A stretch of DNA of 64,000 nucleotides from Escherichia coli (GTDB taxonomy: Bacteria > Pseudomonadota > Gammaproteobacteria > Enterobacterales > Enterobacteriaceae): assembly GCF_022846255.1 (NCBI RefSeq), contig NZ_AP025682.1; one strand, written 5' to 3'. Made by a program: the position numbers and the translations under genes. Every line of letters begins with the position of its first letter. The stretch's first letter is position 1. Below the pieces are notes generated by a model. The model had not been told where the DNA came from, made no database searches, and was given only the letters and a program-made list of their open reading frames with translations. This document shows, piece after piece, positions 47,205-60,177 of the stretch.

Positions 47205-47365
47205 GATGCTGACGCGTCTTATCAGATTGCGTAGGCCGGATAAGGCGTTCACGCCGCATCCGGCAATCAACGCCTGATGCGACGCTCGCGCGTCTTATCA
47301 GGCCTACAACTGTCGTTGACATGTAGCCGGATAAGACGCTTACGTCGCATCCGGCAAAATATCCA
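47205..47365. repeat. REP/BIME cluster (at least 3 palindromic units) between uppP and cca
   Basis: Repeated units GCCGGATAAGGCGTTCACGCCGCATCCGGC, GCGTCTTATCAGGCCTAC and GCCGGATAAGACGCTTACGTCGCATCCGGC in alternating orientation. Confidence 0.75.
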
Positions 47366-55223: not shown

Positions 55224-55252
55224 TTGACGCTGTTGTTTTTTCAACCTAAAGT
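55224..55252 (+). promoter_or_regulatory. Near-consensus sigma70 promoter (TTGACG-17-TAAAGT) driving the Sib antisense sRNA
   Basis: -35 TTGACG at 55224..55229, 17-nt spacer, -10 TAAAGT at 55247..55252; predicted TSS about 55259, 40 nt downstream of the ibs stop on the opposite strand. Confidence 0.5.
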
Positions 55253-55258
55253 AAAGGA

Positions 55259-55400
55259 ACAAGGGTAAGGGAGGATTTCTCCCCCCTCTGATGAGTTGTT
55301 AGTAAGTCGGGAAACTTAACAGTAACAACACAACCAGTATGATGACGAACTTCATCATAACCCTTTCCTTCTATAAGGCCCCTTCCTCGGGAGGGGCTTT
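55259..55400 (+). ncRNA. Sib-family antisense sRNA (type I antitoxin; SibD/SibE-like), ends approximate
   Basis: Transcript from the promoter above would cover the whole ibs ORF on the opposite strand and end at a GC-rich hairpin (CCCCTTCC-TC-GGGAGGGG, about 55380..55397) followed by CTTTCCCGTTT; about 140 nt, the size I recall for Sib RNAs. Confidence 0.55.
55299..55358 (-). CDS. Ibs-family type I toxin, 19-aa hydrophobic peptide MMKFVIILVVLLLLSFPTY
   Basis: ATGATGAAGTTCGTCATCATACTGGTTGTGTTGTTACTGTTAAGTTTCCCGACTTACTAA on the reverse strand with RBS GGAAAGGG 5 nt upstream; matches the Ibs consensus (MMK.VIIL..LLL.SF..Y). Below the ORF-track size cut-off. Confidence 0.8.
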   Translation of the reverse strand: MMKFVIILVVLLLLSFPTY

Positions 55401-58183: not shown

Positions 58184-58384
58184 ATGGATCATAGTCTTAA
58201 TTCTTTAAATAATTTCGATTTCCTGGCGCGTAGTTTTGCCAGAATGCACGCAGAAGGTCGCCCGGTCGATATTCTGGCCGTTACTGGTAACATGGATGAA
58301 GAACATAGAACCTGGTTTTGCGCACGTTATGCCTGGTATTGCCAACAGATGATGCAAACCAGAGAACTTGAATTAGAACACTGA
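58184..58384 (+). CDS. glgS: Surface composition regulator GlgS
   Basis: Track ORF starts at GTG 58178; real start ATG 58184 ([45 protein letters not shown]...), 66 aa, GGAGGA RBS. Confidence 0.9.
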
Positions 58385-58388
58385 TATT

Positions 58389-58410
58389 ACGGGCCGTCTG
58401 GCCCGTTTTT
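58389..58410 (+). terminator. Rho-independent terminator of glgS
   Basis: ACGGGCCGTCTGGCCCGT hairpin followed by TTTTT, 5 nt after the glgS stop and 8 nt before the convergent ubiK stop. Confidence 0.6.
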
Positions 58411-58418
58411 GTGATGCT

Positions 58419-58718
58419 TTATTCTGCTTTATCAATAGGCGGGATAGCCGGAGGAGATTGAAGATCTGCTACCGAATTATTGCGCGCTTCCAGTTCACTG
58501 ATGCGCTGCTCCAGTAACGCCAGTTTTTCACGAGTCCGTAACAGGACTTGCGTCTGAACGTCGAATTCTTCGCGGCTTACCAGATCGAGACGCGTCAGCT
58601 GCGCTTGTAGGGTTTGGCGGATTTTTTTCTCCACATCTTCCCCGAACTCCCTGATTCCTTTAGGCATTGATTCGTGAACCTGGCGAGCGATTTGCTCAAT
58701 TTTTTTCGGGTCAATCAT
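58419..58718 (-). CDS. ubiK: Ubiquinone biosynthesis accessory factor UbiK (YqiC, BMFP family)
   Basis: ORF 58419..58778; recognised start [41 protein letters not shown] at ATG 58718; coiled-coil protein of about 99 aa. Confidence 0.88.
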
Positions 58719-58839
58719 TGTAGTTTCCCTGTACTGATAGGTGTTGAGTGCCATTGTAGTGCGATAAGGGTAAGTCATAAACCAGAATTATGTGAAGCTA
58801 TGCGTTGCTGCCGCTAATCATTAGCGTTATAGTGAATCC

Positions 58840-59085
58840 GCTTATTCTCAGGGCGGGGCGAAATTCCCCACCGGCGGTAAATCAACTCAGTTGAAAGCCC
58901 GCGAGCGCTTTGGGTATGAACTCAAAGGACAGCAGATCCGGTGTAATTCCGGGGCCGACGGTTAGAGTCCGGATGGGAGAGAGTAACGATTCTGTCGGGC
59001 ATGGACCCGCTCACGTTATTTTGGCTATATGCCGCCACTCCTAAGACTGCCCTGATTCTGGTAACCATAATTTTAGTGAGGTTTT
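58840..59085 (+). promoter_or_regulatory. FMN riboswitch (RFN element) in ribB leader
   Basis: Conserved RFN blocks visible: GGGCGGGGCGAAATTCCCCACCGGCGGTAAA ... CCGACGGTTAGAGTCCGGATGGGAGAGAGTAACG, followed by an expression platform reaching the ribB SD (GAGG at about 59078). Confidence 0.8.
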
Positions 59086-59091
59086 TTTACC

Positions 59092-59745
59092 ATGAATCAG
59101 ACGCTACTTTCCTCTTTTGGTACGCCTTTCGAACGTGTTGAAAATGCACTGGCTGCGCTGCGTGAAGGACGCGGTGTAATGGTGCTTGATGATGAAGACC
59201 GTGAAAACGAAGGCGATATGATCTTCCCGGCAGAAACCATGACCGTTGAGCAGATGGCGCTGACCATTCGCCACGGTAGCGGTATTGTTTGCCTGTGCAT
59301 TACTGAAGATCGCCGTAAACAACTCGACCTGCCAATGATGGTAGAAAATAACACCAGCGCCTATGGCACCGGTTTTACCGTGACCATTGAAGCGGCTGAA
59401 GGTGTGACTACCGGTGTTTCTGCCGCTGACCGTATTACGACCGTTCGCGCAGCGATTGCCGATGACGCAAAACCTTCTGATCTGAATCGCCCGGGCCACG
59501 TTTTCCCACTTCGCGCGCAGGCAGGTGGAGTACTGACGCGTGGCGGTCATACTGAAGCAACTATTGATCTAATGACGCTGGCAGGCTTTAAACCGGCTGG
59601 TGTGCTGTGTGAGCTGACTAATGACGATGGCACGATGGCGCGTGCACCAGAGTGCATTGAGTTTGCCAATAAACACAATATGGCGCTCGTGACTATTGAA
59701 GACCTGGTGGCATACCGTCAGGCACATGAGCGTAAAGCCAGCTGA
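59092..59745 (+). CDS. ribB: 3,4-dihydroxy-2-butanone-4-phosphate synthase RibB
   Basis: 217-aa [54 protein letters not shown]... Confidence 0.95.
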
Positions 59746-59778
59746 AAACCGCTGCTTAATTTACTGCCTTAATCAAGA

Positions 59779-59812
59779 AACCGAAGTTGTAGCAGGCTTC
59801 GGTTTTTATTTT
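59779..59812 (+). terminator. Rho-independent terminator of ribB
   Basis: AAACCGAAG-TTGTAGCAGG-CTTCGGTTTTTATTTT: stem plus U-tract 33 nt after ribB stop. Confidence 0.6.
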
Positions 59813-60006
59813 TCCCTGCTATGCAAGATGTTAATTCCGCTTCTCTTTCTATGAGAAAATTTCATTAATATCAGGCATTCTTTTTCATTATGATCAAAAT
59901 CATATAATTGTTCCGTTATTATGCGACCATATGAATATATCCGAAAAAGGATATGTGAAATTTATGCGCTAAATGTTTAGTATTGTTAAATATTAAGGGT
60001 AAAAGG

Positions 60007-60177
60007 ATGTTTATCGCCTGGTACTGGATTGTATTGATTGCTCTTGTTGTTGTGGGTTATTTCCTGCATTTGAAACGTTATTGTCGGGCGTTTCGCCAGG
60101 ACAGAGACGCACTGCTTGAAGCGCGGAACAAATACTTAAACAGTACGAGAGAAGAGACAGCCGAAAAGGTAGAATAA
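60007..60177 (+). CDS. Small single-TM membrane protein (56 aa), uncharacterised
   Basis: ATG 60007 with AAAGGA RBS; MFIAWYWIVLIALVVVGYFLHLKRYCRAFRQDRDALLEARNKYLNSTREETAEKVE, one N-terminal TM helix then a charged tail. Track lists a longer TTG-initiated version from 59983. May correspond to a K-12 small protein between ribB and zupT, but I cannot confirm the name. Confidence 0.5.
   Translation: MFIAWYWIVLIALVVVGYFLHLKRYCRAFRQDRDALLEARNKYLNSTREETAEKVE

Follow-up and report, generated by a model that had tools for sequence, protein, structure and literature searches.

The FMN riboswitch in the ribB leader of Escherichia coli and the conservation of its switching segment across Enterobacterales

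Results

The ribB locus and its leader

The window, by which we mean the whole 64,000-nt stretch of Escherichia coli DNA that was analysed (contig NZ_AP025682.1), contains ribB, an ORF whose product scores 287.7 bits against TIGR00506 (cut-off 177), and the gene is preceded on the same strand by a 252-nt leader that begins with an FMN riboswitch aptamer and runs for a further ~103-104 nt from the aptamer end to the ribB AUG (Table 1). A promoter for sroG and ribB was read from the sequence immediately upstream of the leader, with a -35 element TTGCTG (58805-58810), a 17-nt spacer, and a -10 element TATAGT (58828-58833) that ends 6 nt before the +1 position. This promoter is absent from the list given by a consensus promoter scan, and its -35 element matches the consensus at only three of six positions; the assignment as a probable sigma-70 promoter is made because of the spacing, the conservation across genera, and the published transcription start site of sroG. 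The TATAGT element and the TTG of the -35 element are invariant in E. coli, two species of Klebsiella, Salmonella, and Proteus, and the sroG transcription start site has been mapped experimentally, with sroG placed in an operon with ribB (PMC2760140).

Table 1 Features of the ribB leader and gene. Positions are those of the window; nt, transcript position counted from +1 (58840).
Feature	Position	Strand	Basis and remarks
Probable sigma-70 promoter of sroG-ribB	58805-58833	+	Read from sequence, spacing, and conservation
FMN riboswitch aptamer (RFN element, helices P1-P6)	58840-58988	+	RF00050; nt 1-149
P1 5' strand UUAUUCUC	58842-58849	+	Partner 58979-58986 in the FMN-bound state; cmscan structure line
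P1 3' strand GAGAGUAA	58979-58986	+	Common to the competing anti*-P1 helix (58980-58988)
Linker hairpin CGGG/CCCG	58996-59009	+	nt 157-160/167-170; present in the MFE
C-rich, G-poor stretch, candidate rut region	59000-59069	+	nt 161-230; C/G 1.6-2.0 in 40-nt windows
anti*-P1 3' strand CGUUAUUUU	59014-59022	+	nt 175-183; partner 58980-58988 in the FMN-free state
Switching segment CCCUGAUUCUGGUAA	59050-59064	+	nt 211-225; duplex and constrained folds
Shine-Dalgarno GAGG	59078-59081	+	nt 239-242; part of a weak hairpin (nt 230-235/239-244) inside the sequestering stem
Sequestering stem 3' strand UUACCAUGAAUCAG	59087-59100	+	nt 248-261; includes AUG 59092-59094 and codons 2-3
ribB, 3,4-dihydroxy-2-butanone-4-phosphate synthase, 217 aa	59092-59745	+	ORF; TIGR00506; the regulated gene
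ribB intrinsic terminator, 13-bp stem then T-run	59776-59817	+	Terminator scan

Three ORFs in the leader, 58910-59044 (+), 59001-59141 (+), and 58922-59068 (-), were considered as genes and rejected, as they sit inside the aptamer or the linker that follows it. The linker (nt 150-196) contains indels and has zero invariant columns across genera, and the ATG at 59001 is missing in Klebsiella. Downstream of the gene, a full-length, sub-threshold match to the Salmonella sRNA candidate STnc240 (59744-59814, + strand; 29.1 bits against a gathering threshold of 55, E 0.07) overlaps the hairpin of the ribB terminator (59776-59807) and may represent either a 3'-UTR fragment or a resemblance to the terminator. 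A small ORF between ribB and zupT (60007-60177, + strand, 56 aa) is annotated as yqiD, which has a hydrophobic N-terminus and no match in NCBIfam.

Several other features lie elsewhere in the window. The Sib antitoxin RNA (RF00113, 142 bits) is found at 55224-55373 (+), and opposite to it an Ibs-type toxin ORF of 19 aa, MMKFVIILVVLLLLSFPTY, is found at 55299-55358 (-); the two form a type I toxin-antitoxin pair beside yqiK. A single Sib copy was detected in the window, and K-12 presumably carries two tandem copies (SibD/SibE) at this locus. There is also a naRNA4/CssrE match (RF02564, 83 bits) at 47234-47304 (+), which is a REP/BIME-type palindrome pair, and a single tRNA-Met (CAT) gene at 34818-34893 (-).

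Identification of the aptamer

An Rfam scan of the whole window with cmscan gave four matches at the gathering threshold, among them RF00050 (FMN) at 58840-58988 (+), with 120.9 bits against a gathering score of 66.2 and an E value of 1.1e-27. The match is full-length (model positions 1-138 of 138, no truncation), and when the cmscan structure line was mapped onto the sequence, 27 of the 28 consensus pairs were canonical in the window aptamer. The sequence-only reading of this DNA had proposed an FMN riboswitch upstream of ribB from canonical RFN sequence blocks in a leader of about 250 nt, with an Infernal scan as the suggested check; the scan scores the element at almost double the gathering score and puts it on the ribB strand, within the 5' UTR of that gene, and both the identification and the sequence blocks are borne out, while the measured 252 nt agree with the estimate and the riboswitch accounts for the long ribB leader. 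The extent that had been given, 58840-59085, holds at its 5' end, which coincides with the start of the Rfam match as well as with the published +1, and is slightly short at its 3' end. Since the AUG and codons 2-3 lie in the 3' strand of the sequestering stem, the functional unit reaches ~59100; it also takes in the promoter.

The element is well represented and already annotated. A 321-nt query comprising the promoter, the leader, and the start of ribB was found at 95% identity or above in 5425 of 5426 complete E. coli genomes, and at 99% identity or above in 4928 of them; the genome features that lie under these matches are annotated as "riboswitch | ribB". In the case of strain AR_0077, which is 100% identical to the window over the query, PGAP has placed an "FMN riboswitch" at the equivalent of 58840-58988, with yqiK, yqiJ, glgS, and ubiK on one side and ribB, yqiD, zupT, and ygiD on the other. 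The expectation that this was a known element worth annotating is thus matched by a RefSeq/PGAP feature at the same coordinates. The riboswitch is already known, being publicly annotated and extensively characterised, and there is nothing unusual in the window copy. Matches of the query in a plasmid collection were considered as a sign of mobility and discarded, as the records are mislabelled chromosomes or chromids, all of them non-mobilizable.

In a permissive local Rfam scan of both strands, only sub-threshold chance matches were found around the riboswitch besides the FMN match itself. One sub-threshold candidate, AdoCbl-II at 58918-58986 (22.3 bits against a gathering threshold of 36.5), overlaps the FMN match and was rejected as a chance resemblance. 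That the RF00050 match might in turn be a chance resemblance, or a decayed relic without function, has a negligible probability in our judgement, given an E value of 1e-27 at nearly twice the gathering score, the 5425 E. coli genomes that carry the element at 95% identity or above, and its conservation together with ribB in more than 100 species of Enterobacterales.

Correspondence with the K-12 riboswitch

The riboswitch of ribB in E. coli K-12 is said to have been studied in Winkler 2002, Hollands 2012, Pedrolli 2015, and Bastet 2017, and the K-12 ribB FMN riboswitch/SroG (RF00050) is the same element as that in the window, with a numbering that maps 1:1. From the start of ubiK to the stop of ribB there are 16 differences between the window and K-12 MG1655, and the leader differs at two positions only, nt 77-78 (58916-58917), which are AU for GC and lie in the P3 apical loop. 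No difference is present in the promoter, in the rest of the aptamer, anywhere in the expression platform, or in the start region. As the leader is identical to that of K-12 save for two loop bases, the published K-12 experiments apply here. The construct of Eschbach 2024 (PMC11571811) is 282 nt long and ends after codon 10, which sets the AUG at +253 = 59092 and +1 at 58840, and the residues that were mutated in that study land correctly in the window (C175/G176 at C59014/G59015, and U181 at U59020).

Both strains have ubiK / ribB / yqiD / zupT in this order, though they differ beyond ubiK, where K-12 has the ygiL-yqiGHI fimbrial operon that is absent in the window strain, a difference with no bearing on the riboswitch. 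In the window (58184-58718), as well as in AR_0077 and in Klebsiella, ubiK adjoins glgS directly; in K-12 MG1655 (3184840-3189865), ubiK is followed by ygiL-yqiGHI, with an IS2 inserted in yqiG.

Anatomy of the expression platform

The unconstrained MFE of the 282-nt RNA contains anti*-P1 as a 9-bp helix that is exactly the published stem nt 141-149/175-183, and it extends this helix by pairing 58975-58979 with 59038-59042. The same MFE contains a sequestering stem of 13 bp, formed by 59052-59064 with 59087-59100 (nt 213-225/248-261), which pairs two of the three AUG bases. A further pairing can be drawn between the 5' side of P1 and the switching segment, where UCAGGG (nt 9-14, 58848-58853) is perfectly complementary to CCCUGA (nt 211-216, 59050-59055), with a possible 5-bp extension between nt 3-7 and nt 221-225. 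We infer that the pairing of nt 9-14 with nt 211-216 is probably the core of the ON-state anti-P1 helix; it is read this way because the 5' and 3' extremities of the aptamer are both reported to be engaged in helices in the ON state (PMC11571811).

The experiments on the K-12 leader place several landmarks on these strands. RNA polymerase pauses in a first region at nt 175 and 181, within the anti*-P1 strand, and in a second region at nt 247-249, at the 5' edge of the 3' strand of the sequestering stem (PMC11571811). The sites of RNase H probes 137-146 (3' side of P1) and 218-227 are protected by FMN, with Kswitch values of 176 nM at P1 and 206 nM at the sequestering stem, and FMN sensing is good in the elongation complex at nt 175 (EC-175, Kswitch 23 nM) and poor at nt 247 (EC-247, about 7.7 μM) (PMC11571811). 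The authors of that study state that the structures of the platform are still to be clarified (PMC11571811).

Conservation across Enterobacterales

Species-representative genomes were scanned with one 40-nt pattern from the aptamer core, which was chosen to leave the platform unbiased, and at least 120 loci were found, nearly all in Enterobacterales. A RibB-like start is present downstream in 113 of the 120 matches listed, from which 109 full leaders were extracted; the comparative alignment consists of 110 leaders, which are close relatives as they were picked by an exact 40-nt pattern. A few genomes outside Enterobacterales, for example Mesobacillus harenae and a Firmicutes MAG, also contain the exact pattern with no RibB start after it, and in these the matches presumably belong to FMN riboswitches of other flavin genes, with platforms of another kind. 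Salmonella and some other genera have an insertion of ~50-60 nt in the apical loop of P2, apparently forming an extra hairpin, with the core intact.

The helices of the aptamer are 98.7-100% paired in the 110 leaders (P1 98.7%), except for P3 at 66.7%, where the consensus G-A position never makes a standard pair. Compensatory changes were found in P1 and in one other aptamer helix, and P3 has clean compensatory changes between E. coli and Klebsiella. For the OFF structure as a whole, 94.1% of cells are paired, as against 40-55% after a shift of the partners by 1-3 columns, a control that is inflated since the structure came from one of the aligned sequences; nine pairs are changed on both sides, a number that was reached in 0 of 500 shuffles. 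The ON structure is 93.6% paired, with the anti-P1 core at 100%, anti*-P1 at 91%, and its extension at 99%. Among the smaller elements, the linker hairpin at nt 157-170 is paired in 82.5% of cells with compensatory changes in all 4 pairs, and the inner hairpin that holds the Shine-Dalgarno sequence is only 76% paired across the 110 leaders.

The platform (nt 197-261, 59036-59100) is more conserved than much of the aptamer. In five genera taken from the mislabelled chromosomes of the plasmid collection, nt ~197-270 hardly change across the range from E. coli to Proteus and the linker at nt 150-196 is variable. In the 110 leaders, all 14 positions of the sequestering stem's 3' strand (nt 248-261) are invariant. 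The box GCCCUG.UUCUGGUA is invariant except at nt 216, and the segment nt 211-225 otherwise varies only at nt 225, which is A in 109 leaders and G in one. At nt 216 there is an A in 85 leaders and a G in 25, while its alternative partners, U9 in anti-P1 and U258 in the sequestering stem, are invariant; as only A and G occur, every variant keeps both pairings, as A-U or as G-U. The sequestering stem is 100% paired, and 11 of its 13 pairs never vary, as is likewise the case for 5 of the 6 anti-P1 pairs, and it is this near-invariance that leaves both stems without compensatory changes, so that covariation cannot prove either. All 110 leaders have AAT and CAG as codons 2 and 3 of ribB, and codons 4, 5, 7, 9, and 10 vary freely at synonymous sites, a pattern that indicates a constraint at the RNA level exactly at the stem.

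Such invariance might reflect an extra function of the platform, for example a site for Rho, NusG, or another protein, or a pairing site for an sRNA, or FMN-loaded SroG might act in trans. We regard this as quite improbable, since the overlap of a segment with two partners, the start codon, two further codons, and a pause site explains the invariance without an extra function.

Predicted order of the competing helices

At equilibrium, the sequestering stem forms alike when the aptamer is enforced and when P1 is forbidden, and the ON and OFF states are not separated; the probability of being unpaired is about 0.30-0.36 for the Shine-Dalgarno sequence and the AUG in every equilibrium case. When anti-P1 is forced, the fold lies about 4.5 kcal/mol above the MFE and the AUG opens only in part (unpaired probability 0.47-0.68), with the Shine-Dalgarno sequence unchanged. 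The stability of the entire leader is unremarkable (z = -0.9). Equilibrium two-state folding was dropped as a test of the switch, given that it leaves the accessibility of the Shine-Dalgarno sequence and AUG unaffected, and truncated transcripts were used instead. Across the truncation series, P1 is in the MFE at 150-160 nt and gone by 175 nt, anti*-P1 has replaced it at 185-195 nt, the anti-P1 core is found at 215-255 nt, and the full sequestering stem appears from 262 nt only. This predicted order, from P1 to anti*-P1 to anti-P1 to the sequestering stem, fits the reported kinetic, co-transcriptional switch.

Probable transcription termination in the leader

Hollands 2012 reportedly saw FMN- and Rho-dependent termination in the leader in purified transcription without ribosomes. 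Judged by composition, nt 161-230 are a candidate rut region; this composition and the lack of an intrinsic terminator agree with control by Rho but are not specific to it. The dependence of ribB on Rho has been reported from ChIP in a rho R66S mutant, with a Rho termination score of 3.1 (PMC5499598), and a 2025 review counts ribB among the cases in which FMN "likely unmasks" a rut site (PMC12360218).

A small hairpin at nt 230-244 is followed by seven consecutive U (59082-59088), which suggests the possibility of an attenuator with an intrinsic terminator similar to that of Bacillus subtilis ribD. The hairpin, however, is A/U-rich with 6 pairs including a G-U, it is the one whose pairs are conserved at only 76%, and the U-run belongs to the spacer between the Shine-Dalgarno sequence and the AUG; moreover, a terminator scan found zero intrinsic terminators on the + strand of 58840-59091, and E. 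coli riboswitches are described as being without them (PMC11571811). Taken with these points, an intrinsic attenuator is highly improbable.

A different possibility is that the riboswitch acts on translation only, and that the drop in ribB mRNA and Rho termination are indirect effects of a message left untranslated rather than of a rut site exposed by FMN, a coupling that has been shown for thiM (PMC5499598). No part of the leader is more conserved than the sequestering stem, which covers the AUG, as would suit a purely translational switch, and the composition gives a C-rich region in which no specific rut site has been located. FMN nevertheless raises the accessibility of nt 184-193, which is within the C-rich region (PMC11571811), and ribB is put in the class under direct control, with Hollands et al. 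2012 as the cited source (Fig. 7A of PMC5499598; PMC12360218). We consider the purely translational reading to be unlikely on this evidence, and the scheme discussed below gives Rho a part in the switch.

The leader fragment SroG

SroG was reportedly first described by Vogel et al. 2003, and we take 58840-58988 to be its annotated extent as well, with a 3' end at ~nt 149. The stable sRNA that the sequence-only reading had named as arising from the aptamer fragment is this RNA, and it is backed by the literature (PMC2760140, PMC7456131), where SroG is derived from the ribB leader and its function is described as unknown (PMC7456131). It is probably a by-product of termination or processing.

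One could propose instead that SroG is in the first place an sRNA gene of its own that acts in trans, and that the cis effect on ribB is secondary or additional, as SroG accumulates as a discrete species (PMC2760140, PMC7456131) and binds the predicted targets cdsA, cysJ, yfbR, yncD, mepM, potA, and pgl mRNAs in gel shifts in vitro (PMC6172242). Against this, one promoter and one transcript are common to sroG and ribB (PMC2760140, PMC7456131), the sequence of SroG is a full-length FMN aptamer, and the aptamer together with the switch helices accounts for the conservation; the support for the targets is in vitro only, and riboflavin production is derepressed when a 223-bp stretch ahead of the ribB ribosome-binding site, which is the FMN riboswitch, is deleted (PMC9885008). 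A primary role in trans is for these reasons very unlikely, and a by-product of the ribB leader is the reading that we retain for SroG.

Discussion

We conclude with high confidence that the element is the E. coli ribB FMN riboswitch, an FMN-controlled OFF switch, and that a fragment of its leader is the sRNA SroG. The scheme by which it would operate combines our own observations, namely the identity of the aptamer, the gene context, the strands of the helices with their conservation, and the order in which the helices become favourable, with published experiments on a near-identical sequence for FMN binding, for the protection of P1 and the sequestering stem, for the pause sites, and for Rho dependence. 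Transcription would start at ~58840, and the first 149 nt would form the FMN aptamer with its six helices. FMN that binds before RNA polymerase has left the leader, within the published sensing window (before ~nt 175-247, 59014-59086), would lock P1, leaving neither P1 strand free for the competitors downstream. The segment 59052-59064 would then pair with 59087-59100, so that the start codon is buried and the Shine-Dalgarno sequence enclosed, and the closed sequestering stem would block the initiation of translation. The untranslated C-rich leader may in turn let Rho end transcription early, which would leave short leader fragments such as SroG. When there is no FMN, 59014-59022 would capture the 3' strand of P1 to form anti*-P1, and 58848-58853 could pair with 59050-59055 as anti-P1, withholding the 5' strand of the sequestering stem; with this strand withheld, ribosomes would load and ribB would be made.

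The best comparators outside the K-12 element are the B. subtilis ribD riboswitch of the rib operon and the TPP riboswitches of E. coli. The ribD riboswitch shares the RF00050 aptamer, the FMN ligand, and an OFF logic over riboflavin biosynthesis, and it is likewise kinetically driven with pause sites (PMC11571811), but it uses an intrinsic terminator and antiterminator, whereas the window element would work by sequestration of the Shine-Dalgarno sequence and AUG together with Rho, without an intrinsic terminator. The thiM, thiC, and tbpA riboswitches belong to another aptamer class with another ligand, and resemble the window element, in the scheme given above, in combining translational repression with Rho-dependent termination, in having a co-transcriptional sensing window that is bounded by a pause near the start codon, and in having competitors of the anti-P1 type. 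In the case of thiM the effect of Rho is described as indirect, while ribB is classed as direct (PMC5499598).

What the comparative analysis adds is modest: the switching segment and the first three codons of ribB are frozen in 110 Enterobacterales leaders, and the principal variable site, nt 216, keeps both of its pairings, which supports the still-debated model of the ON state and is not a discovery. The ribB FMN riboswitch is among the best-characterised riboswitches and is an antibiotic target (roseoflavin, ribocil). For the window strain, the riboswitch accounts for the 252-nt ribB leader, the small ORFs in the leader are thereby not genes, and 58840-59100 is regulatory RNA rather than empty intergenic space.
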